DNA of 64,000 bases. Origin: Octopus vulgaris. Its lineage: Eukaryota. Below the pieces are notes generated by a model. That model did not search any database. It was not told the DNA's origin and was given only the letters and a program-made list of their open reading frames with translations. The stretch is from NCBI GenBank assembly GCA_951406725.2, contig OX597821.1, positions 106,454,001 to 106,518,000 of the forward strand. Reading direction: 5' to 3'. Shown piece after piece: positions 2,763 through 62,289 of this stretch (the stretch's first letter is position 1; every line of letters begins with the position of its first letter). The translations under genes were made by a program, and so were the position numbers.

Positions 2763-2852
2763 ATATTAGTTTTCCTAAATCGACTAACGAATGAATCTCA
2801 TGGAATCGATGTTGGTGGCTGTTTCGTAATAACGCCCTCGTCAACACTTACG
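2763..2852 (+). CDS. Penultimate coding exon of a gustatory-receptor-like gene (ILVFLNRLTNESHGIDVGGCFVITPSSTLT)
   Basis: Pyrimidine-rich tract plus tacAG acceptor ending 2762; GTAATT donor at 2853; 90 nt, phase 0/0; peptide fits the GR/GRL pre-TM7 pattern (F..RL....G..G.F.I). Confidence 0.8.
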
Positions 2853-3655
2853 GTAATTTATCACAGCGTTTAATATTTACAAAACTTCATTTTATATATG
2901 AAGCGCTTTTTTTCTTTATAATGTCTAAAAGAAACTCAACTCCATTTCTATATACGAAGTTGAGGACTTTATATGATTTGGTGGTAAAGAGTTTTCTGGT
3001 TTTGTAATAAAAAAAAAGTAGATGATTACAGTTCATTAAACGTATTCTACCATTGTTTTTTTTTTTTTTTTTTTGCTGTAATTGTGTAGGACGTTTTCAC
3101 CCTCGTAATTTAATGTTTTATGTTCAATTTATATTGTAACTTATATTTAATATACAGCAATGCTTTCTGCTATACCTAACACACTTTTCTAAGTATTTGT
3201 AATATACTATTATTCTGCTGTAAATCTTATATGCGTTAAAGAACTAAAAGCATTTTAACTCTGAATATCTCTTCCTGAAATTGGTACCTGCGTCATTTAT
3301 GCCATCAAATACCGTAGTTTATATATATATATATTTTATCTATTTTAATTTTTATTTTATCTAGTTTCAGCTCACGAACTGTGGCCATGCTGGGGCACCG
3401 CCATTTGGTGTTGCTACATAAGTTTACTTTACGAATGCTTATTAGCAATTGACATTTGGTGCATGAGAGTGTTTGGTGCAGCTGCCTTCATCTGCACCTC
3501 CTGCTACGAAGTTGGTTCATCTGGAACACCTGACAGGATGAGGTCCAGCTTTATTTTGAAGACACCTACATCCACCCCATGCAGGTCTCTCAGATCCTTC
3601 GGGAGGTTATTGAAAACTGTGGACCTCTGAAGCCCAGGCTATTGCAGTATCTTGT

Positions 3656-3700
<45 letters not shown>

Positions 3701-4479
3701 TCATACAATTTTTTTGAAATATATAGGAGGTAATGTGATATGACATCCGTACTTGGACATATGTACGAATATATGCAATCTGCTTCAAATAAACTCTGTT
3801 GCCACTGCATCTATCTATTACTGATACAGCTCCTCATACTTCAATTTTCCGAAAACTCCGAAACAAGATGGTGACCTACCAGAATCGTTAGGATGTCAGA
3901 GAAAATGCTTAGCTGCATGTTTGGAAGTTCTTTACGACTAAGTTAGAATCGCGTTGATAAATGAAAATACCAGTAATGTACTAGTTTCGACGTAATCGAC
4001 TTACATCTGTGCTTCACTCTGCTGACCTTAAATCTTACAATGTGCCGCCAGCTTGGCAAGGGGAATGTTATGGTTTCAGTAACTTATACGTATTGGAAAC
4101 CTAGTAACCGTATTAATGAATGCGCAAGCAAAATTATAAGTAAGTGCTAAATATTAACATTTACTTATTTCGTTAATAGATTATATTGGAGGATATTATA
4201 ACAAAACAATATTCCTAACAAACCTCCAATTAAAACTGCAACACAACTGCTATAATCACAACAGGGCTATAGATGCTATGATGTGATTGAAGTGGAAACC
4301 AGCTTTAAAGGAGATAGGAGATTTGAAAACATAGTTTTGAGCTGGGAGCGAAGATACTGGATTGTTTAGTGTTATCGAGCTCGTTCTCTTATTCCCAACC
4401 TCCTTTTGTAACTACATATCGCAGGACTCCTCTCATTTTAATCAGACATCAATCAATTATTGCTATTACAATTAGTAAT

Positions 4480-4635
4480 AAGACAGTGAGCTGGCAGAAA
4501 CGATAACACACCGGGCGAATTGCTTAGCGATATTTCGATAGTTCTAATTCCGCCGAGGTCGACTTTGCCTTTCATCTTTCGGAGTCGATAAATTAAGTAC
4601 CAGTTGCCTACTGAGGTCGATCTAATCGACTGGAT
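4480..4635 (+). mobile_element. SINE (tRNA-like head, Deu/Nin-like core) in the last GRL intron
   Basis: gagctggcagaaacg...gtcgactttgcctttcatc...gtcgataaattaagtacc; same family as 22445-22677 and 42455-42686. Confidence 0.75.
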
Positions 4636-4868
4636 TGCCTAGAATACAAAAGGATATATATTCTACCGATGCCTAATTGAAACGAACTGACGACAAGACT
4701 GGCAGATTTTTAACTGAATGCCTAAATTACTCGTATTGGCTGAATCATTCACGTTACTGCCAAGTTTCTGTCCTTATTTTATTAAAATATAATAAACTTC
4801 TTTCTAAATCATTCTATGAATTCATTGAAAATAACAGCTAATTTATTTTTCTCTTTTCTTCTTTTCAG

Positions 4869-4925
4869 ATGATAGGAAGTTTTATTACTTACATACTGGT
4901 TGTGATCCAGACAAAATCTTTATAA
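4869..4925 (+). CDS. Terminal coding exon of a gustatory-receptor-like gene (MIGSFITYILVVIQTKSL*)
   Basis: Strong polypyrimidine tract plus ttttcAG ending 4868; carries the TYhhhhhQ TM7 signature; TAA 4923-4925; AATAAA at 5373-5378. Confidence 0.85.
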   Translation: MIGSFITYILVVIQTKSL

Positions 4926-5474
4926 CTGCCCTCTTCCTTATTATACCTTTCCAATGGTAAATTAAATACGAAGTTCAGTTAAACAACATTACTTCACCTA
5001 TACATGTGTTCGGACAACGTCCCTGCAAACCTTTCCGAAGCAAGATGCTTGAACAGATAAAAAATAGCGTGATACTGTAGCGGGTTCCAGCCTCTCGTAC
5101 CGGTGAAACATTAGGTTGACTATGTAATCTTTGTTATCATGCGGCTATTGATTTTCAACTAGTCTTTCTTACAACTGAGCATCATCTTTTTATTAAACCT
5201 TATCAAAAAGAATATTTTTCACTTTGATTTTTCTCCATATATATTGTATTTTTCTTACCCCTCATCTGCACAACATATGTTTTTCTTTGGCCGATACATC
5301 ACTGTATAAATGTTCAATTATAAATATTCAACCTTGCATTATGTAATTTCCTTTTTGGCTATATTTTCTTGAAATAAAATATCATGATGAATCCATTTAC
5401 TGAATTCATTTATTCATTTTACTGAATTAAATGCATGTCATCAGGGTAGAAAAAATTATGTCAATATAAAGCTA

Positions 5475-6767
5475 CGAGAGGCGTTCAATAAGTAATGCCT
5501 CTGACCCACTTCCCATAGCAGCAGAGCAACGAAACTTGGCACAGTTATTAGTCTTTTTCTACATAGGAACTACCCAGAGTTACGCATTTCTCCCATCGTT
5601 TGATGCAGCTCTGGAGACCGTTTTTGTAGAAGACCCCAGCTTGGTCCTCCAGCCACGACGTGACTTCAGAAATCAAGGCTGCATCATCTGGGAAACGCTT
5701 TCCTTTCAAAAACAACTTCATGGCTGGGAAGAGGTGAAAATCAGAGGGTGCAAGGTCAGGAGAGTAGGGGGGATGGGGGAGGAGTTCTTAGCCGCACGCA
5801 TGTGCTTCTGATCTGGCGACACGCGAGTTGTGGACCGGAGCGTTGTCCTGCAAGAGGAGGATGCCTTTGCTGATCTTGCCCCGCTTCTTGATTTTGATAG
5901 CTTCTCTTAATTTCCTCAAAAGTGAAGCATAATAGGCTCCTGTAATTGTGGTACCCTTTGCCAGGAAATCTGTCATCACTACTCCGTCCTGGTCCCAGAA
6001 GACTGTGAGCATGACCTTGCCAGCGGAGGGTTGCACCCTTGCCTTCTTTGGAGGAGGTGAGTCACGGTGCTTCCACTGCATTGACTGGGCTTTGGTGTCT
6101 GGATCATAGTGATGGACCCAGGTTTCATCCTGTGTAATCAGTCTTTTGAAAAAGTTTGACTCATCTTCTTGGCACATCCCCAAATTCATCCTCGAACACT
6201 CGACGCGTTCTTCCTTCTGGAAAGGTGTGAGCAACCTGGGAATCCATCTGGCAGACACCTTTTGCATATGCAAATGGTCATGAATGATAGTTTCCACAGA
6301 CCCGGTACTAATCTTAACCTCATGGGCTATTTGGCGAATAGTTATGCGTCGATCTTCCAAAATGGCAGCCTCAACTTGACGGACAGGTGCCTCATCAATG
6401 GCAGAAGGGGGACGACCAGATCTGGGAGCTGTTTCCACAGAGTTCCGACCATGTTTGAATTCACGATGCCAGCGTTTTACAAGGTCATATGATGGGGTAT
6501 CATCACCATAAGTTACTTTCATTTCATCAAAAGTCTCCCGTGGTGTGCGTCCTTTCAAATACAAAAACCGGATCACTGCTCGACACTCAACAGGCTCCAT
6601 TTCACACTTGACTCAGTTCAAACACCTGTAAATCAGAAACCACAATTAGTTCAGAGCTGTAACTCTCCACTCAATCTATAGAGATATGAATAATTGCACA
6701 TGCAAACTTTCAGCTAGATCAAATAACTGCAAGTGGGTCAAAGGCATTACTTATTGAACGCCCCTCG
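5475..6767 (-). mobile_element. Full-length mariner (DD34D) transposon
   Basis: TIRs cgagaggcgttcaataagtaatgcc / ggcattacttattgaacgcccctcg; TA on both flanks (5473-74, 6768-69); 1293 bp. Confidence 0.95.
5548..6600 (-). pseudogene. Mariner transposase (350 codons) with one in-frame TAA at 5788-5790
   Basis: WIPRLL, DETW and DNAP motifs; the same frame continues past the stop as ELLPHPPYSPDLAPSDF...YVEKD*. Confidence 0.9.
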
Positions 6768-9729: not shown

Positions 9730-9971
9730 TGACGGATGTAATGTCAGTTCAGCTCCGAAGGTAATTGTTTATTTTGACTATTTATAGGCCAATTTTTGTG
9801 TAGATTTTTGCAAATAAGGTGTGTAAGGCAACCAACTTTCGTTTGAGTGCTTTTCCAAGGGAGGAATTCGCCCCTAGGGGCAGTTTCGACCCCATTTCAT
9901 TTCTGTGATTTTCTTCTCGACATTAGAAAATGTCTTGAAATTTTATTGTTGAACGCTGGTCGCGTTCTTTT

Positions 9972-11822
9972 ATGGAACAACATTTTCCTAGTCTGGAAAC
10001 GACAGAGAAAAAAAAGAACGTTCGCACGGAAAATGCCAACGTAAAATTCGGTGAAATGAACGCTGCGACCACGTGCGTTAACAGCCCTGTAACCACCGCC
10101 ACCACCACCACTAACAACAGCAACCACGAGACAACAACTGCTACTACCACCACCTCCACCACCACCACCACCACCACTACCACGACCAACATAAATGATA
10201 AAAATAAAACTGAAACGAAAACTATTGACAAAAACAACAGCAACAACAAGAACAACAATAAAAATGAACTATCTAATAATGAAGATGTTAATACAAAAAA
10301 ATCAACAACATCAGTAAATTTCGCAGACATTCTTCGCCAAAAGAAGGAAATTGTTACATTCACAAATGAAGAGCTCATAGAGACAAGAGCTCTCTTTACA
10401 ACCCGTGGACAAGATTTAGTGCTGCATACACCTCAACATATAAAACAAGAAATTGAAAATAAGACAATTGTATATAAAATTATTAGAAAAAACAAAAAAC
10501 CAAATGAACAGATTACAAAAACTGATGTGGAGAAATGTTTAAAAAACATAATGAAAGAAAAAGAGTATATAAACTGGGGTCCCCAGTTTAACACAGTAGT
10601 GGTCCGCTTCCCTTACCAGGAAGTGGCAAAAGCTCACTCTACTGAGTCTCTGGGAAATGATGAAATCATCATGGTCCCTTATTATAAAAACCAGAGGGTG
10701 AGTAGAATTACTATCAGAAATGTACCCCCCGATATGCCGAACAAATGGATAACAGGGGCAATCTGTTACCACTTGAAAAAGATCAATATTTTGGAAACAG
10801 CCGTGTACCTAAACGACAATTGGGGTGGAAAAACAGTAGTGGTGACCATCCAGATTGAGGGGGCCTCTATCGAGAGCCTACCCGACAAGATATTCTTGGA
10901 GAATGGGCAATGCCTATATGTTATGGCAGAAGGCAAAAAGCCTAGATGCTACAAATGTGGCAGCCCCGAACATTTGATTGCCAAGTGCGATCTGGTACAG
11001 AAAAAACAAGAAAGAACAAATCAGAAAACAAATAAAATCCCTTTGTTGCCAACACCAACACCAACACACTCAATTATGGAACAATGCCAAGAAAAACAAC
11101 AAACCAGCAAACAAACCCCAACAACATCACCAAGAAAAACAGTACCAACACAATCACAGTTGACTTCACAACCAATTAAACCTGTTGAATTAACAAAAAA
11201 TAGACCCACGCCCACACCCAGGACGACAATTAAAAAGACAGAAAACACTGACGAGAAGACAAATGCTACCCCTAACACCACAACAACACAAACACCGCAC
11301 AAAACATCAACAATTTATACAAGCATACATAGTAATGCAAATGTTTTGCCTCTACCCCATACTGATACGTCGGACGACGAAAGTTCGACGGAATGGCAAA
11401 TAGCCACAGGGGGTAAAAGAAAAAGATCCAAAAAATCCACCAAACAAGGAATTAAAGCAGGGAGATATCTAACTCAGGACAACATCCCCCTAGACAATCA
11501 AAAAAGTAATGAACCCGTAAAACCACACACACAACTAACTGCAATAGACACAGACAATAAAGAATTAATGGACTACATCAAATCTAACATGGTCGTCTGT
11601 GAAGATGATTTTAAGACAAACAATCATCCGCACACCACACCACCGAAACACATCAGAATTTTACACATAACACAAGCACAACACCACATACTGAAAACAT
11701 TATTTCCGAATGCGGTAGGCGGGTATCAACGATACCTGTCGAAAAAACTATACAAACACCTCATCAAAAACGATACAAAAGAAGAAGAAGAAAAAAATGA
11801 AACTTTTAAAATGAGTAAGTGA
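9972..11822 (+). CDS. LINE ORF1 protein, 616 aa, with CCHC zinc knuckle
   Basis: CYKCGSPEHLIAKC (CX2CX4HX4C); lies directly upstream of ORF2. Confidence 0.85.
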   Translation: MEQHFPSLETTEKKKNVRTENANVKFGEMNAATTCVNSPVTTATTTTNNSNHETTTATTTTSTTTTTTTTTTNINDKNKTETKTIDKNNSNNKNNNKNELSNNEDVNTKKSTTSVNFADILRQKKEIVTFTNEELIETRALFTTRGQDLVLHTPQHIKQEIENKTIVYKIIRKNKKPNEQITKTDVEKCLKNIMKEKEYINWGPQFNTVVVRFPYQEVAKAHSTESLGNDEIIMVPYYKNQRVSRITIRNVPPDMPNKWITGAICYHLKKINILETAVYLNDNWGGKTVVVTIQIEGASIESLPDKIFLENGQCLYVMAEGKKPRCYKCGSPEHLIAKCDLVQKKQERTNQKTNKIPLLPTPTPTHSIMEQCQEKQQTSKQTPTTSPRKTVPTQSQLTSQPIKPVELTKNRPTPTPRTTIKKTENTDEKTNATPNTTTTQTPHKTSTIYTSIHSNANVLPLPHTDTSDDESSTEWQIATGGKRKRSKKSTKQGIKAGRYLTQDNIPLDNQKSNEPVKPHTQLTAIDTDNKELMDYIKSNMVVCEDDFKTNNHPHTTPPKHIRILHITQAQHHILKTLFPNAVGGYQRYLSKKLYKHLIKNDTKEEEEKNETFKMSK

Positions 11823-11879
11823 CCTCACTTCTTGCCTCTTGTCTCTTCTAATATAGTGTGTAAAACACAATTTTCGTAA

Positions 11880-14800
11880 ATGTCAAGTATGCTTAAATTA
11901 GGTTGTGTGAATGTGCGTGGCTTGGCGTCGGCTTGGAAGCAAGGTTACCTTCTAAACGACATCAAGTCACTGGACGTGGATATAGTAGCTATCAGTGAAA
12001 CCAGACTCAGTAAGCCGCGGGCCCTCGAGTCCATGTTTGGCAATCAATTTGACATTTATTTTTCTCCCTGTCTGCCGAACATGGGTGGTGGAGGTACTGC
12101 GGTGCTTTTTCGAAAGAGTCTAAAGGTAAAAGTAAGAGCAATATTCCTAGACCCGGAGGGTAGGCTGGTTTTCTTGGACGTGGATTGCAGAAATGGGTGT
12201 GCATTCCGTCTGATGGCAGTTTATGCACCGTCCTTAACGGGTCGGGCGGATTTCTTCAGACGTCTAGAGGTTTCCCTGGGTACGTCTAGACCTTTACTGT
12301 TAGTAGGGGATTGGAACGCTACCTTGGACACGCATCTAGATTATGTGGGAAGGGATAGGAATAGAAGGGGGTGTAAGAGCCTCAAAGACCTGCTCAGACA
12401 TTTCCATTTGTCTGACAGGTTCCGACTCGACCATCCGAACGTTCCAACGTGGACTTGGACAAACCGCGTCGGATCGTCGAGATCTTATCTAGATAGAATT
12501 CTATGCAGGACAGCGGATAGGGATAGTGTAGGATGTCCACAATTTAAAATAGTCAGCTACACAGATCACAAATTTGTTACGTGTACGCTCGACTTAGATA
12601 AAACACATAGGCAGGGTCCCGGTTACTGGAAACTGAACACGTCGCTGTTAGCGCGACAGGTTTACAGGAACCGGATTAGCGAGTTAATTAAGAGGGCGCT
12701 GACGGGAGCGGTCGTTAACAACCGCTGGTGGTACGCCCTGAAAATGGCAATAAAATCGGAATCAATTAGGTTTAGCAAGGAATTAGCGATAGAACGAAAT
12801 AGAGTAGAGGGAGACTTAGTTAAGAAACTAGAAGAGGCTCTTACCACTGGCAGCGCAACCAACGTGCTGGCTACGAGGATGGCCCTCGACCAACACCTCA
12901 ACGCCAAGCACGAAGGTTGCGTCGTCAGAGCTAAAATGCGTACTTTAAGGAACGAAGGGATTGAAGCTGCGCGAGAGGCCCGGGTAGCGGAGGCGCAGCG
13001 TGGCAACAGATCAACCATTCGGTCTCTAATAGATCAACAGGGATGCAGTTTACTCGAACCCGAAAGGATGTGTGAGGCCTTTCAACAGCACTTTGCTCGA
13101 CTGTTTGGTGCGAGTGGTGGGTCGGAACGAGGGATGGATTTCAGTGCCTACCTGACCGACCTGCCGCGGCTCTCGGCAAGAGAAGCGGAGTGTTGTGAAA
13201 GTCCCATCACAGCCGCTGACGTGTGGGATGCGATGGCGGGCTGCGCGAGGGATAAGTCGCCTGGATTGGATGGTTTACCATACGAGCTGTATTGTCGAAT
13301 GCCAGACTTGTTTGGCGACCTCTTGGCATCAGTCTACTGCAACTGGCAACAAAACGGGAGAATCCCCGGTTTCGTGAGCCGAGGTGCAGTGACGTTGCTG
13401 AAGAAAGACTCAAACAAGGGGAATTTTATAGATAATTTCAGGCCCATCACTCTGCTCAACGCAGATTTGAAAATTTTGGCCAAAGTAATAGCCGAGAGGT
13501 TGGCGCTTGTCATTGGTAAACTGGTCGACAGGGCGCAAACATGCGCCGTGCCGGGCAGAACCATACATGACAACCTCCATCTGATGCGCTACATTGTGGA
13601 CAGGGTAGTTAAGGATCCTGGCATGGGTGGGGCGCTGATAAATTTGGATCAGTCTAAAGCCTTCGATAGGGTCGACCATCGGTACTTGGCGGCCGTCCTC
13701 GGGGCGGCTGGCTTCGGTCCCGTCTTCCGCGGTTGGATCGCTGCCTTGTATAGCGGCATCCGATCGGTGATTCGGGTGAACGGTCACCTGTCTAAACTGT
13801 TTGACATCACGCGTTCGGTCCGTCAGGGGTGTCCCCTGTCGGCGCTTCTGTATGTATTGACTCTCGAGCCGCTACTGCGGAAGCTGGCGACACTGAGGGG
13901 CATCCCACGGGAACTGGGTTGCGGGACGAGCGTGTCAGCATATGCGGACGATGTCACCGTCATAGTGTCGAGCGACAAACACATCAAGATGATAGGCGAG
14001 ACACTAAGAAAATACGAAACGGTGACGGGAGCAAAGATTAACCCGGAAAAGTCAGTGGGTTTGCTACTCGGCACCTGGAGAAGCAAGCCCATGCCGTCCG
14101 ACTGCGGCTCAGTAGTGGGACGCTGGACGGACGGACCGGTTAAATTGCTCGGGGTCTGGTTCAGTCCGGACCTCCAAATGGATAAGAACTGGAACGAGAT
14201 CACGAGTAGAGTGGTCGCTCTCAGCCAAACATGGGCCGAGAGAAATCTGTCTCTAAAAGGCCGGGCGGAGGTGGCGAACGCGTACATCGCATCCGTCATC
14301 GATTACCGCCTGACCGTCGTACCCTGTCCCGACGCCACTATCACTAAACTGGAACGCATACTCTTCCGCTTCCTGTGGAAGGGTGGCGTTCCGATGGTGA
14401 GGAAGTCCATTTGCTGTCAACATCCGTTGAATGGAGGACTGGGCATGCCGTGGTTGATGATGCGCAGGAATGCGCTGAGACTGCGACATCTCTGGAAATT
14501 CATCGACGACGGTGAACAGGTGTGGGCGCCGTTTGTGAGGCGCGACTTCCCGCAGCTCGTCTCACTGACCGAACTGCAAACGTGGATAAAAAAAGACCGA
14601 AACTGGGCGATTGGCACCGAGAGTGTCGCCAAGCTCTACAGCAGCTCTGCCGCCCGGGGTCAAACTTGTGCAACTTCCAAACGACTAAAGCGTTCTATAG
14701 AGGACTAGTGGAGGGGAGGTCCGACGACACACTCGGGGCAAACCTGGGCGTCGACGAGGAATTCCTAACCCGCCTGTTCAGAACGACGTTCGGGCCGGGG

Positions 14801-15265
14801 CCTATGGATAACTTCCAGAAATCCCTGGCTTGGCAGTGCTATCGAGACACACTACCTGTTCGAGAGAAGAGCTACAGACACGGTTCGAAAACCATCACCG
14901 GACCGACCTGCCCGAGATGCGGTCAGAGCGACGAAACCGTTCTGCACGCACTCGTGCAGTGTCCAGATATTTCAGAGCTGTGGTCCTTCGTCGAACAGCT
15001 GTTGTCACGTGTAGGTCAGGCTCGCCTATCGGCCGAGTCTATTGTGAATATTGTTCCACCACCTTCCTTTAAACGGGAAGGGAAAACGGTTTTCGTTACG
15101 CTGATGGCTATGGCGAAAGAATGTGTGTGGTGGACGCGTTTGAAAGGACTGCAAACAAACACCTTCCTCTCTGGTCAGTCTCTCGTCAACTTTTTCAAGT
15201 ACCACTTGAAAAGGAGGATGAGAATAGAGAGGAAGGCTTTGTCGAACGAATGTTTTAATAAATAG
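11880..15265 (+). pseudogene. LINE ORF2: AP endonuclease, reverse transcriptase and C-terminal CCHC finger; frameshift near 14590
   Basis: NVRG, SETR, GDWN, YLDR and TDH (APE); FRPITLLN, QGCPLS and YADD (RT); CPRC...HALVQC in the shifted frame; the shift falls in an A-run, as shown by comparison with the copy at 37317-38850. Confidence 0.9.
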
Positions 15266-18021: not shown

Positions 18022-19304
18022 CAGGGTGGGGAAGCAAAATTTACAATATTTTGAGGCAGGGATTGAAAGACAGTGTATGACCAATTTGTTTATTGAAAGT
18101 CATAAGAATTTATTTGCTACAAGACAATTTACAAAATAGAAAATAGTTTTATTCTATGTGTCCCTCCTTCTTTCCCAATAACTGCCTTCACACGCTTCCT
18201 GAAACTTGCACAAACGTTCCTCAAATATTCGGGAGACGACTTTTCCCATTCTTCTTTAATAGTATCTTTAAGTCGACATTGCTTTGTGATGTTCTATTGG
18301 TAGCATGTTCTAAAACACCACAAATAGCATAATCCAGAGAGTTTATATCTGGGCTAGAAGGTGGCCAGAAAAACGATTCCAAAAAATTGCTAAAGTTGGA
18401 TTTGCAGAAATCTTGTATTTTTCTAGCTGTGTGGGCTGGAGCACCATCCTGTGTCCATACATAATTACCATCTGGGTAGTTTGCTTGAAGCCATGGCAAT
18501 GCCTGGTATCTCAAAGTCTTGTAGTAAGTATTAACATTGATCTTTTCATCAGCTTTGTAGAATATTATAGGCATTTTCTTTCCATCGGAAGCCACAATAC
18601 CAAAAGCAATAACTTGAGCAGGATATTTTGTTTTGAATGTCACCTTAACCTCAGCTGTTGATTTTGCGATAAATCTGTCATTTCTGCTGTTCAGAACACC
18701 ATCAACACTGAAGATCTTTTCATTTGAAAAGATCGTTATAATGGAGGACATTTTCTTGAACCATGTAATAATTTTCTTGCACCTCTCCAATCTCTTTTCC
18801 TTCAGAGCTGTTGTCAACAAGTGTTTTGGTGTTCTTGTTAAGATTTTAACATCAAATCATATTTTACAGCATTTCTAATGGTCTTGTTGTCTACCTCAAG
18901 TTCAATTGCCATTTTTATCATGGATTTGGTTGGATCCTTTAGGATTTTGGATTTCAGAGCTTTAATAAAAGTTTTGTTACGTTTTTTGTTGATTCCTCAA
19001 CTTCCAGACTTCCTCGTAATAGTTTTGCCCATAGTCATTCTATTCTTTACATTATAAATAGTTTTTATGGACACTCCAACTATTTTTGAAATCTCCTATG
19101 GTGGGACGAGTGCATTCAGAAAGTCACACACTTTTTGACTTTTGCTTTCCTGATTACTCATATGGACAAAAGTTTCTGAAAAAGTAAGGATAATAGTGTT
19201 AGGTATGAGTATGACATCAATATATGCTAGGTTTCATAACAATTGACTTAGTGTCTCCTGAGAAAAAACAACTTAACCTTCATTGTAAATTTTGCTTCCC
19301 CACC

Positions 19305-20089: not shown

Positions 20090-21046
20090 ATGGAGACTGT
20101 GAACACAAATGAAACACCTTTCTTGAAAACTCTCGAATTTTATGCAAATATTAATAGTTTTCTCAAATCAATAACCGACATATCATTGCTGAAATCAAAC
20201 AAAGTTAAAGGTTTTTCTTTTCAAGTTCTCTCATTACTGCTCTATATGTATTTATTTCTAAATCCTATACGGCACATAGTTTCCTTAGTACAAATTGGAA
20301 CTATAGAAAGCCATCAAATGTTTCTATGTATTTACATAATAATTTTCCGCATATTTCAATCTTTATCTGTATTGATAAAACTGTTCAGAAACTCTAGACA
20401 CAAGGAACTAATTGAAAAGTTTGCCGAACTTAAAACTGAACATGAAGAAAACATCTGGTATAACAGACCTATAGTATATAAGTCAGTGTATATATTAATA
20501 TGTCCGGTTATTATTGGGAGCATAACTATAGATCTTATAATACCGCTGTTCAGTAATGATTTGTTCACGTATTTGACATACCCTGTACCAGCTGATTATA
20601 AATATATCATCCCATTTTTAGCAATGCATGTTGTATTTAATTCAATGGCAACGGTATCCATATTTGCTGATGTGTACATAAATCTTCTAATCGCAGTTTC
20701 TCTTATGCATCACTTTAACAAAGTGGCGAATGAAGCACAGATTTATGTAACTGAAAAGCAATCAGCGAAGTCCGATATTATTAAAAATCATAGAGATATT
20801 ACAGACATATGTAACACTCATGATACTCTTAGTTCAATACTGAGTTTAGTAAATGATTCCTTGCAGTTTATTTCAGGGTGTACCGTGTTCAGTAGTATTA
20901 TCAGCTGCTGTATTGCTACTTACGGAATAATAAACGATGCTCTCAAAGGTAACATGTATACAAACATTTATGCCATTGTGGTAGTTTTGGTTTCTGTGAT
21001 TCCTTGGATTGTAATATTTTGGTGCGGAATTCATTTAAACAAATCG
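20090..21046 (+). CDS. Gustatory-receptor-like large first exon V1 (319 codons, ~6 TM segments)
   Basis: Intact hydrophobic ORF paralogous to V2, V3 and V5 (NPIRHIV, LTYPVP, FNK.A.EA, DITDICNTHDTLSSIL.LVNDSL); similarity ends at GIHLNKS|GTAAGT (21047). Confidence 0.8.
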
Positions 21047-23905: not shown

Positions 23906-24898
23906 ATGGAAACTCATTCTGAAGATATCGCTCATATAGAAAATATGAAACGGAAGCGAACACAGTTCCTCAAAATTTTTGAATCATACAGAAAATTTAA
24001 TATCATTAGGAAATCAGTTACGGATATTTCATCGCTAAAATCTCTTCAGCTTGGAAGGATATTTTTCCACACTTTATATATACTGTATTATCTATGTGTG
24101 ATTACAAACCCCATTCGTTGCATTGCACATTTTATACTATTGAAAAATTATAAAACTGATGAAATGTCTGTGTATATTCTTATCATATATTACCGAATTA
24201 ACCTTGCTCTTTTATGTCTGCTACAATTATTTTGGGATTCTAAAAAGAAACAGCTAATTGAAACACTTGCTCAACGTGAAATCGAAGAAGAAGATAGAAA
24301 ATTCTATAATTCCAACGTAAGCTTCTCATACATATCTCTCTCTATAAGTATACTGGTACCGCTAACTATTTACATATTTATAGAGCAAGTTTTGCCGCTT
24401 TTTAGCCCTGCTATACTGGCTTTCTTAACATATCCTGTACCAATCAACAATACTTTAAACATTCCATTTTTAACAATACAAGTTGTAATTAATGGTATGT
24501 CACTGACGTCTGGTTTATTTGATGTGTATATACATTTCATGACTGGACTTATTCTTAAATATGAATTTAACAAGCTGGCGGGTCAGGCTCAACGTTACCT
24601 AAAGGAACAGCAACCATACATTTCAATTTTGGCGAAAAAACCTAGAGAGATTACAGATTTGTGCAATGCACACGATAATCTGAGTACAATACTGGGATTA
24701 GTAAATGAATCATTACAGTTTCCTACAGCAGTTATCGTACTTGGTAGCATCATTAATTGCTGTATTGCAACGTACGCAACTATAAATGTCCCATATAAAA
24801 ACGACTTGCCTTTGTACATTTATATAATAATCGTTACATTCAAAAGTCTGATGTTTTGGATCATAACACTTTGGCATGGTGTTCGTTTACATGCTGCG
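23906..24898 (+). CDS. Gustatory-receptor-like large first exon V2 (alternative start at ATG 23945)
   Basis: Intact paralogous ORF ending GVRLHAA|GTAAGT (24899), same codon and phase as V1. Confidence 0.8.
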
Positions 24899-32048: not shown

Positions 32049-32558
32049 GCACACACACACGCAACATATCTGAAGATAGCCAGATTAACAGCTTTAGTAT
32101 TTAAAGATTCTAAGCTTCTTGTAATGTAAGTATTGGAATAAAAATCCACGTTTACAATGAGGTACCTAATGGCAGAGCCAGTACCTGAGAGAGCTCTTGC
32201 TCTCTCTTCAACACCACTCCCATTTTTTGTTTTGTTTCTCTGGGTGTTTATGATTCTGCATGCTCTACAGAAGAGATAAATATATGTAGGTTGCATATAG
32301 GTGAGCATGTTAGTATTAATACACCTGTGTGTGCATTTTTATGTATGCATACATACATGTATAGAAAGATATAAAGATATACGATTTGTATTATGTATGG
32401 GTTGGATTTCCCGCCGAACAGGTGTTGATGTGAACAATAAAAATTGTAGGAATATTAGTAAGCAACATACATGTGTGTATGTATGTATGTATGTATGTAT
32501 GTATGTATGTGTGTATGTATGTATGTATGTATGTATGTATATGTGTATGTATGTAGGT

Positions 32559-32645
<87 letters not shown>

Positions 32646-32646
<1 letters not shown>

Positions 32647-34703
32647 TGACATCAAAACATGAATTACAGAAAGTCCTTGACCAAATATACAGATTAGAAG
32701 ACAATCTAAAACAACACTATGATGAAGAACGTAACAATGCAGAAAAGAAAGCCATAGAAAACATCAAGAAAAATCCAAAATATTTCTACAGTTTTGCAAA
32801 GAAATACTCGAACACCAAGTCAACAATAGGACCTCTCCAGAGACAAAATGGGGATGTAGTGAATAACCCTATTGAAATGGCAGAAATGTTGGGTCAACAG
32901 TATGAAAGTGTCTTCAGTGAGCCATCTAAAACCATGAAGATCCATGACCCAGGAAAATTCTTCAAGGATATCGACCATACTAAACCTACCCTATCCGACA
33001 TTGATTTCAACCCAGAAGACATAGCAAGAGCAATAGACAAGCTCTCCATGCACTCGGCTGCGGGGCCTGACGGTTTCAATGCCATGATACTTAAAAACTG
33101 CAAGGCACAATTGTCGAAACCCCTTTACATGATATGGAGGGAATCTATGGAGAATGGCAAAATACCAAATACATATAAAGAAGCACACATAACTCCAATA
33201 CATAAAGGGGATAGCAAATCAAAACCAAAGAACTACCGACCAATCTCACTGACATCACACATTATCAAGGTCTTCGAAAGAATAGTTCGTGGAAAACTGG
33301 TTGAGTTCCTGGAATCCAACAATCTGATGAATTGCAACCAGCATGGATTCAGGTTAGGTAGATCATGCCTTTCCCAACTACTGGCACACCATGACCAAAT
33401 CCTAGAAAATCTAGAGAATGGATACAACACAGATGTTATCTACCTCGACTTTGCCAAGGCATTTGACAAGGTAGATCATGGCATCCTGGGTCACAAACTT
33501 CGAAAGCTAGGAGTAGGAGGAAAAGTTGGTACATGGATACACGAGTTCCTTACAAATAGAACTCAAACAGTCACTGTGAATGGAACCCATTCAACACCAT
33601 CACCTGTGACCAGCAGTGTTCCTCAGGGTACAGTACTCGGCCCAATCCTGTTTCTCATCCTCATCTCTGACATAGATGAAGATACAACCAGCAACGTCTC
33701 ATCCTTTGCTGATGACACCAGGGTCATGAGACAAATCAAAGACGAGGTGGATACAGAGGCCTTACAAAAGGACCTGACCACCATATATAAATGGCAGGAA
33801 ACAAACAACATGTTGTTCAATGATAAGAAGTTTGAACTAATTCGCTACGGAACATATCAAGATCTGAAAAATACAACAAACAACAGAAACCCATCAGGAC
33901 AACAAATAATGGAAAAACAGTATGTGAAAGATTTAGGCATCCACATGGGAACCAACCTAAAATTCAGAGAACACCTTGACTCAGTCTGTCTTACTGCAAG
34001 AAAGTACAGCGGGTGGATCTTGCGCACCTTCAAATCAAGAGATACCTCAACAATGAAAACCCTCTGGAACAGTATGATACTTCCGAGGATTGACTACTGT
34101 TCTCAGTTGTGGTCACCAACAACAAAGGGCCAACTATCTAAGATAGAATCGCTCCAAAGAAATTTTACCTCATACTTCTCAGAAACGAGGGACCTGGACT
34201 ATTGGCAAAGACTCAAAACCTTGAGGATGTACTCAATAGAAAGAAGATTTGAGCGATACCGAATTATATACATTTGGAAAATGATAGAGCAGAAGGTGCC
34301 AAACTTTGGTATCAAAACCTACCACTCACTGCGCCACGGAAGACGCTGCCAGCTGCCACCAATCAACAAAAAGGCTGGCCAGGCAGCAAAAACCCTGCGA
34401 GAATCAAGTCTGTTGGTTCGAGGAGCACAACTGTTCAACTCCATTCCGGTACATGTCAGAAATCTATCAGGATGCAGTGTGGAATCATTCAAATTGCAAC
34501 TGGATAGATACTTAAGCACCATTAGGGATGAACCCCATCTCCCAGGATATACACAACGAGCACAAACTGACTCAAACTCGCTCCTACACATGTCAAATTT
34601 AAGCAGAGAATACAACCTGGCAACCACACCAGACTCTGAGGGTGGAGTCTTCGACTTGGCCTGAGCATGGACTCAAACCCAAATGAAATGAAATGAAATG
34701 AAA
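32646..34703 (+). mobile_element. 5'-truncated CR1/L2-type LINE with an open RT frame (to 34664) and (GAAAT)n tail, inserted in (TA)n
   Basis: NYRPISLTS, QHGFR, YLDFAKAFDKVDH, VPQGTVLGP and FADD; the N-terminus of ORF 32301 is microsatellite. Confidence 0.9.
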
Positions 34704-37125: not shown

Positions 37126-38850
37126 CAATAGGGATCGTTATCACAGAAATGTCAATATGAAGTGTAAAGGGGAGGACAGGTGAGGTTTACCCGTGGAAAG
37201 AAAAGCCTACGGAAAAGACCACGGTAACCTCGGTCAATGAAGTCACATTTTATATTTCTTTTTTTTTTTTTTTTTTTTTTTGCAAATAAGCAACTCTCTG
37301 TTTTCGATTTCTGGGTTCATAGGACTATGCTCAAGGTGGCTTCGTCATTCATACGTGCCATTCTTGCTACATTCACCCATCTTTTTTTGAAACATTCGCT
37401 AGACAAAACTTGCCTCTCTACTCTCACTTTCCTTTTCAAGTGGTACTTGAAGAAGTTGATGAGAGATTGACCAGAGAGGAAAGTGTTTGTCTCCAATCCT
37501 TTCAGACGCGTCCACCAGATACATTCTTTCGCCATAGCCACAAGGATGATGAAAATAGCTCTTCCTTCCCGTTTGAAGGAAGGAGGCGTGACAATATTGA
37601 CGATAGACTCAGCTGATAAACCGACTCGTCCCACACGTGACAGCAGTTGTTCGACATAAGCCCACAGGTCGGAAATTGTTGGACACTGAACGAGTGCGTG
37701 CAGAACGGTTTCGTCGCTCTGACCGCATCTCGGGCAGGTCGGCCCCGTGTTTCTCGAGCCGTGTCTGTAGAGCTTATCCCGAACGGGTAGCGCTTCTCGG
37801 TAGCACTGCCAGGCCAGGGATCTCTGGAAGTTGTCCATGGGCCCTGGCCCGAAAGTCGTCCTGAACAGGCGGGTCAGGTACTCCTCGTCGACGTCCAGGT
37901 TCGCCCCGAGCTCGTCGTCGTACCTCCCCTCCACTAAACCCCTATAGAATGCTTTGGTTGTGTTGAAGTCACTTAAGGTCGACCCAGGACGGCAGAGTTG
38001 CTTGAGAGCAACGCGACACTCGCGGTGCCATTCGCCCTTCCTCGGCCTCTTTTTGATCCACGACTGCAGTTCGGTCATGGAGACGAGCTGCGGGAAAGCG
38101 TGCCTCACAAACGGCGACCACACCTGTTCACCGTCGTCTACATAGAGCCAGAGATGTCGCAGTCTCAGCGCGTGTCTGCGCATCATCAACCACGGCATGC
38201 CCAGCCCTCCTTTTAACGGGTGTTGACAGCAAATGGATCGCCTGACCATCGGGACGCATCCTTTCCACAAGAAGCGAAAGAGGATGCGTTGTAGTTTGGT
38301 GATGGTAGGGTCGGGACAAGGTACGACGGTCAGGCGGTAGTAGATGACGGACGCGATGTACGTGTTCGCCACCTCCGCTCGACCTTTTAGGGACAGTTTC
38401 CTCTCGGCCCATTGCCGGGCGAGAGTGACCACCCTACTCGTTATCTCGTTCCAGTTCTTCTCCACTTGGAGGTCCGGGCCAAACCAGACCCCGAGCAACT
38501 CAACCGGGCCGTCGGTCCAGCGTCCCACGACGGAGGCGCTGGTGGACGGCATGGGCTTGCTTCTCCAGGTGCCTAGTCGCAAGCCCACTGACTTTTCCCG
38601 GTTGATTTTCGCTCCTGTCACCGCTTCGTAGTTTTTCAGTGTCTCACCGACCAGCTCGATGTGCTCGTGGCTTGACACTATGACGGTGACGTCGTCCGCG
38701 TATGCAGACACGCTCGTCCCGCATCCCAATTCTCGCGGGATGCCCCTTAGAGTCGCCAGCTTCCGCAGTAGTGGCTCAAGAGTCAATACGTATAGAAGCG
38801 CCGATAGGGGGCATCCCTGACGGACCGAACGTGCAATGTCGAAAGGTCTC
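36910..38850 (-). mobile_element. 5'-truncated Tx1-like LINE related to 9730-15631
   Basis: ORF from WIAALY through YADD to the C-terminus is open and very similar; 3' end agccctgtgtgg...aataaag. Confidence 0.9.
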
Positions 38851-39306
38851 GATAGATGTCCATTTACGCGAATTACCGAACGGATGCCTCTGTACAAGGC
38901 AGCTATCCAATAGCTAGATAAGTAGATAGATAAGAAAACAGATAGATAGACAAATAGACAGGTAGATAGATAGATAGATGAATAGTTAGACAAATAGACA
39001 GATAGACAGACATCAGACAGGCAGACAGATAGATAGGTAGATAAATAGATACATAGGTAGGTAGGTTAGTAGGTACGTTGGTAGGTAGGTAGGTAGGCAG
39101 GCAGGCAGGTATGTAGCTAGGTAGGTAGGCAGGTAGGTAGGTTGGTAGGTAGGTAGGTGGGTATGTAGTTAGGTAGGTAGGCAGGTAGGTAGTTAGGTAG
39201 GTAGGTAGGTAGGTAGGTAGGTAGGTAGGTAGGTAGGTAGGTAGGTAGGTAGGTAGGTAGGTAGGTAGATAGATAGGTAGGCAGGTAGGTATATAGATAG
39301 ATAGAT
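38851..39306. repeat. (GATA)n/(GGTA)n microsatellite complex
   Basis: Direct reading of the sequence. Confidence 0.9.
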
Positions 39307-39637: not shown

Positions 39638-40591
39638 ATGAAACTAAATGAAACTCGTTTCTTTAAAATGCTGGAATTTTATCGAAAATTTAACACTATA
39701 AGGACTGCAAGTTTGAAAATGTCATCGGTGAAATCTTTTAAGTTTAAAACTATTTGTTTGCAAATTTTTTATATACTCCTCTCCATGCATATTACTTTAG
39801 ATCCTGTTCGCCACATTGTTGCCTTATTGGAACTGGAATCTTCTCACCCTCATGTAATATTCTTATATATATATATAGTATTGTACCGGAGTTTTACCTC
39901 CTTGTTTTGTTTGGTGAAGCACTTCAGAGGATCTAATGTCAAGCAGCTAATTGAAATATACACCAAACTGGAAATTAAAGATGAAGATGAAAAATATTAC
40001 AATTCCTTTTTAATATATTCATATAGAAGATTATCAATATTAATAGCTTTGAGTGTCATTTGTAGCCTAATTATGCATCTTATTTTGCCACTACTCAGTC
40101 TTGATTTGTTGATGTTCTTTACATATCCTGTACCAAACCATATCACATACATCATACCTGTTTTAATAGTGCAGGTTGTATTTAATTGCATATCCTTTAT
40201 GTCCGTGGTAATTGACCTCTATGTAAATCTTACAATTGTTTTCACGCTTGTTCATGAATTTAATAAGGTGTCGCACGAGGCACAGCATTACATAAAGGAA
40301 AATCAATCGTCGAATGCATTTCTTATCAAGCATCATAGAGACATTACCGAAATATGTAACACCCATGATACTCTTTCTTCAATCCTGACATTGGTAAATG
40401 AATCATTGCAGATTATTTCAGGATATATTGTGTTCAGTAGTATTACGAGCTGCACTATTCTTACTTATGGAATTATAAATGGTTTATTGGGAAGTAACAA
40501 GTATTTATATGTATATGTATCTGTGATAGCATCCGGTTATTTCTTGTATTGGATTGCAGTTTTTTGGTGTGGAATTCGTATACACCGAGCG
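39638..40591 (+). CDS. Gustatory-receptor-like large first exon V3 (318 codons)
   Basis: Intact paralogous ORF ending GIRIHRA|GTAAGT (40592), phase 0. Confidence 0.8.
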
Positions 40592-45214: not shown

Positions 45215-45901
45215 ATGACAGTAAAAGAAAAGAAGTTTTTTGAAATGCTGAAATTTTATCAAAGATGCAATAATATTAGAGAATCAAATTTCACCGTCTC
45301 TTGACTCAAATCGCTAACTTTTAACAGAATTTGTTCAAAAATACTTTATTTACTGCTCTCTTTTAGTTGTTTTCAGTCATTTTGACTGCGGCCATGCTGG
45401 AGCACCGCTTTTTAGTCGAGCAAATCGACCCCGGACTTATTCTTTGTAAGCCTATCGTTCTCTTTAGCCAAACCGCTAAGTTACGGGGACGTAAACACAC
45501 CAGCATCGGTTCTCAAGCGATGGTGGGGAGGGAGGGATAAACATAGATACATAAATACACACATATATATAAATATATTTACGACGGGCTTCTTTCAGTT
45601 TCCGTCTATCAAATTCACTCACAAGGCTTTGGTCGGCCCGCGGCTATAGTAGAAGACTCTTGCCCAAGGTGCCACACAGTGGGACTGAACCCGGAACCAT
45701 ATAGTTGGTAAGCAAACTACTTACCACACAGCCACACTTGTGCTCTGTAAATATTTCATTATGAACCCTATTTGCCACATTGCATATTTTATGGACAGGC
45801 ACACTTTAAAATTTGATCAAATATTTGTGTATATTCAAGTAAGTTTTTTTTACCAGTGCTTCCTTTACTGTTTTTGTTTGTTGAAACTTTTACGGAAATC
45901 T
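45215..45901 (+). pseudogene. Disrupted GRL first exon V4
   Basis: MTVKEKKFFEMLKFYQRCNNIRESNFTVS*LKSLTFNRICSKILYLLL [SINE] CKYFIMNPICHIAYF...LLKLLRKS; TGA at 45302; aligns with the V5 N-terminus; absent from the ORF track. Confidence 0.8.
45360..45740 (-). mobile_element. SINE inserted in GRL pseudo-exon V4
   Basis: tgctct duplicated at 45354 and 45741; same family as 17045-17420. Confidence 0.85.
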
Positions 45902-54192: not shown

Positions 54193-55830
54193 GAGTGGCG
54201 GCCAAAATGTTCAGAACGGCATTGTTTTTGTCAGATAAGTAGATATATTTTTTTTATCAAAGTTGTTTTATATTCTATAATTTTCACAGACAATAAATAC
54301 GATATTATTTGTTATTGTCTGAGATTTTGGTGTAGTTTGAGAGGATAATAAAAATTTACGGATGATTTAGTGATTTACTGCAAAACCCATGGCGGCCAAA
54401 ATGGTCAAAACGGTTGCTTTTACTCCGTGTTTTAGTATATTTAACCGGCGAACTCTAATGTGTTGAATTTGTTTACGTGACGGTTCGTTTACTAAACATT
54501 AGTAAGAATATTTGCAGTGTACTTTGTTAATATAATGCCACTTACTCCGTTACCAATTCGTCAGCAGATTATTAAGCTTCGAAGGAAGGATAATTTAAGT
54601 ATTGGATATATTGCAAAGATTGTTAACAAGTCAAAAAGTGTTGTACACGGTATTCTTAAGGTCTACGATGATTGTGGTTCGTGTGAAGCAAGAAAGTTTA
54701 CAGGTAGGCCAAGAAAAACGACCAAGAGAGAAGATCGTGCTATGGTAAAGTTGGTTAAAAAGGACAGATTTAAAACTGCTGCTGCTGTTTCTCGGAAAAT
54801 GAGCATTGTATTGAAGAAAACTTTATCTCGAAAAACTGTGTCTCGTCGTTTAGTTGAACATGACCTACAAGCAAGAGCACCTGCAGTGAAGCCACTGATC
54901 AGCTCCAAGAATAAAAAGTGTCGTCATACCTTTGCAACCGAACATGTGTTGTGGTCTCAAGAAAAATGGCGAACGGTGCATTTCAGTGATGAATCTAACT
55001 TTATGTTATTTGGCTGAGATGGGAAAAGGTACGTTCGTCGAAAAGTAGGTGAAAAATTGTCGCCTGAATGCCTTAAGACTAGTGTTAAATTCGGTGGAGG
55101 AAGTGTCATGGTTTGGGGGATGATATCTGGAGATGGTGTGGGCCCTTTGGCGCGATTACATGGAAAGGTAAATGCAGGAGTTTATAAACAACTTGTAAAA
55201 GATCATGTCTTGCCTGTGCTGAGAAATTCAACTAAGCGACCACCCATATTCATGCAGGACAATGCCCCATGTCACAAGGCTAAGGAGGTCATGAACTACC
55301 TCAAGGCTGAAAAAGTTTTTGTTATGGATTGGCCTGCTCAAAGCCCAAATCTCAATCCTATTGAAAATGTATGGAATATTCTAGGAGAATGTTCGAAAGC
55401 CAGAAATCCTAAAACAACTGAGCAATTATGGAAGCATTCAGGAGCATTCAGGAAGAATGGAATAAGATCACCCAGCAAGTAATTGAAAATTTAATTTCCT
55501 CATGCAGTCGAAGATGTCAGAGTGTGATTGAAGCTAAAGGGCTTCACACTAAATATTAGATAATTCCAGTATTCTCTATCATTTTTGATTATTTTGTTAT
55601 TTTTTCAACCGTTCTGATCATCTTGGCCGTCATGGGTTTTGCAGTAAATCACTAAATCATTCATAACTTTTGTATTATCCTCTCAAATTTATACCAAAAT
55701 CTTGGACAATAACAATTAATATTGTATTTATTTTCTGTGAAAATTATAGAATATAAAACTACTTTGATAAAACCTTATACTTACTTTTCTGACGAAAACA
55801 ATGCCGTTCTGAACATTTTGGCCGCAACTG
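54193..55830 (+). mobile_element. Full-length Tc1 (DD34E) transposon with long IR/DR ends; transposase ~54535-55559 broken by TGA 55015 and a frameshift near 55440
   Basis: ~225-bp TIRs with gcggccaaaatg.tca.aacgg repeated internally; TA flanks; GRPRK, FSDES, QDNAPCH and SPNLNPIEN. Confidence 0.92.
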
Positions 55831-57544: not shown

Positions 57545-58498
57545 ATGAAAGTGAAAGAAACTCAGTTCTTTAAACTACTGGAATTCTATCAGAAATGTGA
57601 TAATTTTATCCAATCGTGCATGACTATTTCATCATTGAAGTCACCAATATTTACAACAATTTGTTCTCAAGCACTTTATATTCTGTTCTGTTTGTATTTG
57701 ATTATAAACCCTATTCGTCACATTGTTACTTTAATACTATATAGGGAAATTAAAATCCATCTCTTACTTTTGTATGGTTTCACGGTGTTTTTCAGAGGCA
57801 GTCTTTCTGTGTTTGCATTGTTAAAACTCTTCAGAAAATCACAAACTAAACAACTGGCTGAAGCTGTCGCCGAAATTAAACTTGAAGATGATGATGAAAA
57901 ATATTCCATCATGAATATCATGTATTCATTTAAGACATTTTATGCAATTATTTGCTTCACCATCCTTTCTAACATATTTGTAGATTTTAGCGTACCGTAT
58001 TTGAATAACGATTTGATGAGGTTCCTAACGTTTCCAATATCAACCAGTGATATATCTAAAATATCAGTTTTAGGAATACAAACTGCACTTAATTCCATTT
58101 CACTTATACTTTTGGTAATTGATTTGCACTTAGGTCTGATAATCGGATTTACACTCAGCTATGAGTTCAACAAGTTGGCAACTGAAGCCGAACGTTATGT
58201 AACGGAGAAGCAACCTGACCATTCAAATTTCATTAAGAAGCAGAAAGATATCACAGAAATATGTAGCGCTCATGAAACTCTGATAAGGACACTGAAATTT
58301 CTAAATGAATCTTTACGACTAACATCAGGATTTATTGTTGTTGCTAGCAATTTTAGTTGTTGTATTGCAACTTACGGGGTTATAAACCGTTTACTGAAAA
58401 GTAACCTCTACTCATACCTATATATGTCAATGTTGGCAACTGGCTGTTTCTTTTATTTAATATTATTAATTTTGTGTGGAATTCATTTAAATAAATCG
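57545..58498 (+). CDS. Gustatory-receptor-like large first exon V5 (318 codons)
   Basis: Intact paralogous ORF ending GIHLNKS|GTGAGT (58499), phase 0. Confidence 0.8.
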
Positions 58499-62135: not shown

Positions 62136-62289
62136 ATTCTATTTCACATCCAGGTACACAGCATTACACAAAGTATCCAATTTATGCAATTCCAGGACGT
62201 AAAGCAGGAAGTTGTTGCTAAGGTAAGCAATATATATTGCTCACCGTCTCTGTATCTATTTATACCCTTCTTTCTCCCTCCCCTCTCTT

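Follow-up and report, generated by a model that had tools for sequence, protein, structure and literature searches.

The 64,000-nucleotide stretch of Octopus vulgaris DNA analysed here (the window, C8:106454001-106518000; coordinates prefixed by C8 are those of the contig, all others those of the window) contains two small exons, at 2763-2852 and 4869-4925, which come second and third among the three phase-0 constant (C) exons (C1, C2 and C3) of a gustatory receptor (GR)-like gene of the 7TMIC superfamily, hereafter unit A. Upstream of these lie eight long variable (V) exons, and one of them (V2) is present together with the constant exons as one sequence (V2-C1-C2-C3), which spans genomic distances of 60.9 kb, 4.7 kb and 2.0 kb. 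The common C exons are found with at least two long exons (V2 in a sequenced contig, V1 and V2 in RefSeq isoforms of O. sinensis), and we hold the exon structure of unit A, as listed below, with very high confidence.

Constant exons of unit A and their splicing

C8:106379735 (V1), 106391052 (V2), 106393925 (V3), 106410093 (V4), + strand: donors of unit A V exons
C8:106418771 (V5), 106427736 (V6), 106433259 (V7), 106447794 (V8), + strand: donors of unit A V exons
C8:106452000-106452068, + strand: constant exon C1 (linker), 69 nt, phase 0, 2,001 bp before window base 1
2763..2852, + strand: constant exon C2, 90 nt, phase 0/0, AG/GT; predicted S7a helix, beta-hairpin and start of S7b (anchor domain)
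2853..4868, + strand: intron C2-C3, 2,016 nt, GT..AG, phase 0
4869..4925, + strand: constant exon C3, coding part, with TYILVVIQ and stop codon TAA; predicted pore-lining helix S7b
4926..5294, + strand: 3' untranslated region (UTR), extent covered by contigs of runs X1, X2, X3 and X5
5192 and 5373, + strand: candidate poly(A) signals (UTR end unmapped)

An earlier note on this DNA had described two phase-0 exons with good splice signals, and their coordinates, phase and sites were confirmed: C2 is directly preceded by TATTACAG and directly followed by GTAATT (translation ILVFLNRLTNESHGIDVGGCFVITPSSTLT), while C3 stands behind a pyrimidine tract ending in TTTTCAG (translation MIGSFITYILVVIQTKSL, then the stop codon). 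The short linker exon, which the note had expected before 2763 and had not found there, is C1; it lies outside the window and was recognised by comparing the gaps between the last V exon and C2 in 11 units, which yielded a 69-nt phase-0 exon. Phase 0 is found alike at the V-C1, C1-C2 and C2-C3 joints. Within the mapped region (C8:106054001-107318000, 1.264 Mb), 17 of the 11,825 C2-like candidates (90 nt, AG..GT/GC) scored 74-155 against the C2 references (16 of these 17 being themselves members of the reference set), and since the next candidate scored only 26, the C2 exon is not a chance occurrence. Length and splice sites are kept in all 17 C2 exons, although their peptides are widely divergent.

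The splicing evidence comes from contigs (no raw 5' reads) of sequencing runs X1-X6, which are presumed to be RNA (none is so recorded; the eight runs guessed to be RNA held a small share). Contigs of X1, X2, X3 and X5 were aligned to C1-C3, and those of X2, X3, X4 and X6 to C1 alone. One contig of X2 (479 nt, depth 4.3) aligns with C1 without any deviating letter; the 17 loose letters that precede C1 have a single match in the 1.264 Mb, at the 3' end of V2, and the letters after C1 are the first 30 nt of unit A C2, including the codon that distinguishes it from its paralogues. Contig positions 1-303 fall on C3 and the UTR, and the remaining gap has the exact length of C2. From these letters and lengths it follows that V2-C1-C2-C3 exists as one sequence, in which the V2-C1 junction bypasses six intact V exons.

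Junction 2852/4869, which the earlier note had proposed as a check, is supported by contigs of three runs: beside X2, X3 fits it with 91 loose letters before C3 and an equal depth of 5.4 on C2, and X5 with 52 letters and a depth of 3.2 on the two C2 positions in reach (none on the third). The X1 contig carries a paralogous C2. This C2-C3 joint was deduced from record lengths and depths, and is absent among the 15 of 99 joints listed (repeats being abundant). The same junction is present in RefSeq models of two other Octopus species, and a protein search with the C2 peptide gave 8 matches, all of them Octopus RefSeq isoforms. A protein named from O. vulgaris agrees with this genome at 100% over 376 residues. 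In O. sinensis (whose proteins are 97-100% identical to this genome), isoforms X1/X2 of LOC118764607 carry V1 (99%) and isoforms X3/X4 carry V2 (97-98%) on one C set, and in LOC118764608 one other C set is combined, in isoforms X1-X3, with three V exons (99-100%) from the largest array; O. bimaculoides LOC106880719 combines two V types with one C set. In public models, three units of the cluster described below have distal V exons linked to C exons. Alternative isoforms of the RefSeq pipeline would as a rule rest on reads. RefSeq isoforms of two species (O. sinensis X2 and X4, O. bimaculoides X2) use an internal acceptor in C1 (C8:106452042); its use deletes 14 residues at the cytosolic end of helix S6, and its AG is kept in four of the four C1 types checked.

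Variable exons, unit B and the 1.05-Mb cluster

The supposition of the earlier note that the upstream locus might have a variable array of its own proved right: the eight V exons of unit A (~318 codons each) stand 4.2 to 72 kb upstream of C1, seven of them intact and one (V2) broken by two in-frame stops (TAA and TAG). Their pairwise identity is 40-46%, except for V3-V6 at 90-93%. No private C exons were found inside the array, between C8:106367747 and 106452000, by an exhaustive AG..GT scan (candidates of 69 and 90 nt plus terminal exons) and a hidden Markov model (HMM) scan. Two inverted V fragments lie within it (C8:106416233-106416614 and 106424908-106425345, - strand).

Unit A belongs to a cluster that extends from 106.23 to 107.28 Mb (1.05 Mb) and holds 95 V loci (62 intact, 33 broken or partial by HMM coverage) together with 18 C1, 17 C2 and 17 C3 exons, in agreement with the at least two tandem loci inferred by the earlier note. 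The counts of V exons per constant set, which it had also called for, reach 19 intact and 15 broken in the largest array and 12 and 6 in the next, with arrays extending up to about 265 kb. A phase-0 GT/GC donor stands at the aligned position in 62 of the 62 intact V exons, being GTAAGT in 50 of them, as compared with GTAAGT in 1 of 1,736 control windows (a nine-codon search elsewhere in the exons). Each intact V exon carries its own ATG at the aligned start, and the V reading frames extend to a stop shortly past the donor. Matches of genome-wide V-protein searches were confined to the cluster. In quick trees (with weak deep nodes) V exons group by C-set family, as local duplication of V exons would produce; the arrays likely expanded through tandem copies of V exons without their C set, and whole units (V array and C set) were likely copied too, giving units A and B.

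Unit B, with its own C set, comprises the V exons within the window (4 intact and 1 broken):

20090..21046, + strand: unit B variable exon 1, 66% identical to V1 of unit A; donor GTAAGT
23945..24898, + strand: unit B variable exon 2, 66% identical to V2 of unit A; donor GTAAGT; earlier in-frame ATG at 23906
39638..40591, + strand: unit B variable exon 3; donor GTAAGT
45215..45901, + strand: unit B broken variable exon, interrupted; 5' fragments only
57545..58498, + strand: unit B last variable exon; donor GTGAGT
62154..62222, + strand: constant exon C1 of unit B, 69 nt
C8:106518141 (141 bp past the window end) and C8:106521697: start of C2, and C3, of unit B

The earlier note was thus right that the upstream C2 and C3 cannot serve these V exons, and right that no linker exon stands in the window before 2763, but it had missed C1 of unit B. 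Service of the window V exons by the unit A C exons was rejected on two grounds: the order is wrong, and the deciding contig letter is that of V2 of unit A and not of its paralogue (24881-24898 in unit B), which differs by one letter. The two C sets differ by a synonymous divergence (dS) of 0.445 and a nonsynonymous divergence (dN) of 0.045, and the first two V exons of the units (V1/Va and V2/Vb) pair up in conserved order with dS of 0.40 and 0.37. With the order kept, 66% identity in both pairs and V dS values close to that of the C sets, the two units have the appearance of a single ancient segmental duplication. An assembly duplicate was ruled out by dS of about 0.4, the C regions being 68-89% alike and only in patches.

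Elsewhere in the cluster, about eight tandem units of 20-30 kb (C8:106800000-106990000, - strand) resemble one another at 91-98%, and a C set is accompanied in each by one or two V exons; the V exons are mostly broken, C2 is absent in one unit and one C1 has a one-base insertion. A V exon at C8:106755485-106756495 (+ strand) has no C set close behind it on its strand, and because its nearest relatives form the array at 107.25-107.28 Mb, there are hints that the block between the two may be inverted. Another V exon, with a GC donor (C8:106546299), has an apparent counterpart joined to C1 in an O. bimaculoides protein (P0033). The public O. vulgaris model P0039 (170 residues) consists of C exons of the 106.26 Mb unit without an intact V part, which shows automated annotation missing V exons. 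The window also contains non-LTR retrotransposon-like open reading frames (9939-15265, +; 37317-39065, -; 32301-34664, +), which by their motifs we take to be a zinc-knuckle ORF1 and an endonuclease and reverse transcriptase ORF2, and transposase fragments (5788-6612, -; 18221-18856, -; 54496-55482, +), presumably Mariner/Tc1-like by the same kind of motif labelling.

Predicted fold, proposed mechanism and alternatives

By its predicted fold, and with a Pfam match in part of its spliced relatives, the gene of unit A is a GR-like member of the GR/GRL (gustatory receptor-like; 7TMIC) superfamily, in agreement with the family proposed by the earlier note. Pfam 7tm_7 (PF08395) was over the cut-off in two of six spliced relatives (P0012, 31.6; P0006, 27.4) and below it in P0003 (22.5), and a genome scan with PF08395 gave no match in the cluster and, among 26 matches, 1 weak one at C8:24.54 Mb (the second locus described below). 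The predicted structure of P0011 (the O. sinensis orthologue, with a V part 99% identical to V1 of unit A), built on 115 aligned sequences, reached a pLDDT of 90.6 and a pTM of 0.87 and replaced an earlier shallow-alignment model with a pLDDT of 36-63 over most of the C exons. The model shows the seven-helix fold, its S7 divided into S7a, a beta-hairpin and S7b, and its structural search returned 19 PDB chains at E <= 0.001, insect odorant receptors (ORs) or GRs throughout among the matches listed; against 20 insect OR/GR entries Z was 21.7-27.5, the next being 7.7. The fold match with insect OR/Orco and GR structures (8z9a, 8v02, 6c70, 7lic, 8jme, 8vc1 and 8jm9) extends over the whole chain (root-mean-square deviation 3.4-4.5 A over 315-370 residues); in contrast, sequence identity is 8-12%, and an octopus T replaces the gate F. 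On P0011 the V exon maps to residues 1-318 (S0-S6), C1 to 319-341, C2 to 342-371 (S7a, hairpin) and C3 to 372-389 (S7b).

The TYhhhhhQ motif of the seventh helix, on which the earlier note had relied, stands in its core (TYILVVIQ in C3 of unit A; TY..Q in 14 of the 17 C3 exons, with TF, TI and SY in the other 3), but not in its full insect form TYhhhhhQF. The GR family tolerates motif variants (PMC9998090) and MhOR5 has Val at the gate position (PMC12635824; here and below, papers given by PMC number are cited from excerpts). As such variants are tolerated, the gene is filed as GR-like and not as a canonical insect GR.

Selection differs between the two parts of the gene: the ratio dN/dS is about 0.10 in C exons and 0.49 and 0.56 in age-matched V pairs, so that the C exons are about five times more constrained. 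Conservation along 27 V exons is lowest in S3, EC2, S4, EC3 and S6 (0.26-0.32) and highest in the cytosolic S4-S6 parts (0.58-0.62), the least conserved segments being the outward-facing ones. In insect GRs, S7b lines the pore, S7a and the cytosolic S4-S6 parts form the anchor, and the pocket lies in S1-S6 (PMC12635824).

We propose that a transcript would start at one V exon and then be spliced to the common C1-C2-C3, the product being a predicted ligand-gated channel subunit of seven helices, whose likely ligand pocket is its own and whose pore helix is common. In the structural model S0-S6 (with the pocket) would come from V, the cytosolic part of the anchor (end of S6, S7a and hairpin) from C1-C2 and the pore helix S7b from C3; since the pocket (S1-S6) would fall to V and S7a/S7b to C, isoforms of one unit are predicted to have the pore and some of the anchor in common, the pocket being where they differ. 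The V exon would be chosen through alternative promoters, and the fold points to tetramer formation and cation conductance. We regard this mechanism, with variable V exons on common C exons giving channel subunits of own pocket and common pore, as very probable, and a chemosensory role of the proteins as probable.

Several observations weigh against this reading. Direct read support amounts to one contig of depth 4.3 with 17 letters on the V side, no contigs were found on C1 in X3, X4 and X6 (three of the four runs laid on C1), and the runs are only guessed to be RNA, with tissue unrecorded. The V exon seen spliced (V2) has two stop codons in this genome, junction evidence is lacking for six of the eight unit A V exons (V3-V8), and the RefSeq isoforms are automated models whose underlying read support was not seen. 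Pfam 7tm_7 did not match three of the six spliced proteins (P0011, P0009 and P0008) and was missed in all four V exons searched alone, which gave no relevant match; the final F of the insect motif is absent in all 17 C3 exons (T in 15, R in 1 and N in 1). Regional pN/pS is mixed in three recent groups (pocket/anchor/rest 0.68/0.35/1.1, 1.0/0.44/0.57 and 0.78/0.81/0.91, the third being poorly mapped). Finally, the cnidarian NvecGrl1 has a role in development (body patterning) and not in chemosensation (PMC5850775).

This last role, together with light and heat sensing by Drosophila Gr28b (PMC6175461), the very low contig depth and the unrecorded tissue of the runs, would fit proteins whose structure is as described here, but which act in development or in internal, light or temperature sensing and not in external chemoreception; a birth-and-death expansion (62 intact, 33 broken V exons) with divergence mostly in outward-facing helices is nevertheless the pattern of ligand-diversifying receptors, and we consider this alternative unlikely. 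That use is limited to one or two V exons per unit, the rest being decaying or silent duplicates (so that the repertoire would roughly equal the number of C sets), could draw on the 33 of 95 V loci that are broken and on the few V exons with documented junctions, the one seen directly being the broken V2. Against such disuse, the 318-codon frames and donors are intact despite 40% protein identity, distal V exons are joined to C exons by public models in three cluster units, and dN/dS is below 1 in old V pairs, which in our opinion makes it decidedly improbable.

Still less credible is a Dscam-like arrangement, with V exons as internal mutually exclusive cassettes behind one leader exon and promoter in place of alternative first exons: the transcription start is unmapped here, which leaves room for it, but each intact V exon has its own ATG at the aligned start, the 130 nt upstream of V exons are purine-rich with no common acceptor (by eye only), and insect loci of this design are described as having alternative long first exons (PMC6175461). 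The V frames continue to a stop just past the donor, as they would if V exons were separate intronless six-helix genes and C2/C3 an orphan remnant or part of an unrelated gene; this is refuted by the spliced X2 contig, runs contrary to the RefSeq models, the donors in 62 of 62 intact V exons and the purifying selection on C exons, and is in our view virtually untenable.

Building on alternative V exons spliced to common C exons, we tentatively raise a broader possibility, of which we remain doubtful: the 60-70 GR-like isoforms might constitute a second, larger ionotropic chemoreceptor system of octopus beside the chemotactile receptors, with promoter choice in sensory neurons, mixed tetramers (through the common anchor/pore exons) with a threonine gate, and a design that arose repeatedly in molluscs (octopus, oysters) from an ancestral gene with a long first exon.

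Known systems and other molluscs

The architecture itself is already known from insects (cockroach Gr60a-m, beetle Gr214). In Blattella germanica, the Gr51-94/418-430 set, including BgerGr60a-m, joins several long first exons to three shared short final exons (PMC6175461), and three C-terminal phase-0 introns, present also in GRLs of other animals, are regarded as ancestral (PMC6175461, PMC9998090). BgerGr60a-m resembles the octopus units in the long first exons, the three common short final exons, the phase-0 introns and the presence of pseudogenic isoforms; it differs in being an insect locus, in its size (13 isoforms in the largest locus versus 19 intact V exons in octopus) and in the canonical QF of insect GRs. 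The likeness of octopus and insect introns is that of phase 0. Tribolium TcasGr214 (30 variants) and Anoplophora AglaGr99 (17) (PMC6720082) are alike in their unique N-terminal exon, common C-terminal exons and array growth in tandem. Unit A likewise has tandem long first exons without C-terminal exons of their own, as is the mark of insect Gr60a-m and Gr214. Drosophila Gr23a, Gr28b and Gr39a are alternatively spliced Gr loci of the same type. The resemblance of the insect loci to the octopus arrays is one of design: in a quick tree (deep nodes weak) the V exons of octopus are joined by no more than three unnamed sequences, and the arrays look lineage-specific. The vertebrate clustered protocadherin and UGT1 loci also place variable first exons on common constant exons, but their proteins are unrelated to the octopus GR-like ones.

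Robertson (2015) and Saina (2015), to go by passages that cite them, reportedly described GRLs of Lottia, Aplysia, Nematostella and Trichoplax. GRLs are known in non-arthropod animals (PMC5850775, PMC6150509) and share with the octopus genes the 7tm_7 domain (over the Pfam cut-off in two of the six spliced octopus proteins), the TYhhhhhQ motif and the three C-terminal phase-0 introns; they differ in being described, in the excerpts at hand, as few genes without reported V arrays. Profile matches to the octopus C-terminus comprised 32 proteins, all molluscan (including Lottia, Patella, Haliotis, scallop and oyster). Literature on octopus, cephalopod, squid and mollusc GRs (mostly non-subscription papers) yielded, to judge from the listings, no description of a cephalopod GRL expansion or V/C array, and the excerpts of PMC11526382, PMC6408891 and PMC11682238 mention no such expansion; octopus sequences may be listed in Robertson (2015), Saina (2015) or Himmel (2023). 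One O. bimaculoides fragment bears the UniRef label 'Gustatory receptor'. What the present analysis adds is a long-range junction seen directly, a map of the units, a second locus in octopus, and isoforms of oysters whose V/C boundary is the same.

Descriptions of chemosensation in octopus centre on chemotactile receptors, of which O. bimaculoides has up to 26 (PMC11526382). The GR-like repertoire (62 intact V exons in the cluster) is likely larger than that of the known chemotactile receptors, and its members are likely overlooked candidate chemoreceptors. Since long single V exons without a C-terminus are missed by Pfam and public models catch only few of them (as unnamed LOC isoforms), such a repertoire is easily overlooked. 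The V/C map supplies candidates that can be screened directly for expression and ligands, and the pairing of a constant pore with a variable pocket makes the locus a natural experiment.

The second GR-like locus (C8:24490369-24550493, - strand) holds six V-like exons and one C set. In O. bimaculoides LOC106874590, isoforms X1-X3 have the last 95 residues in common and are 54-61% identical before them. Two Ostrea edulis isoforms of LOC125676693, X1 (P0159) and X2 (P0158), have the last 87 residues in common and 54% identity ahead of them, the boundary being at the octopus V/C position (as judged from proteins, the oyster being known from models and not DNA), which suggests the same V/C design in bivalves. 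The oyster isoforms suggest that retention of the ancestral introns may be enough for a GRL gene to take on this design, which is known from insects. In a quick tree, V regions of oysters fall with sequences of other bivalves and of gastropods and not with octopus (support 82-85 at those nodes), from which we infer that the arrays likely had more than one origin, built each time on the same ancestral plan of exons. In Saccostrea, one of the models (P0043, P0150) reads V+V+C.
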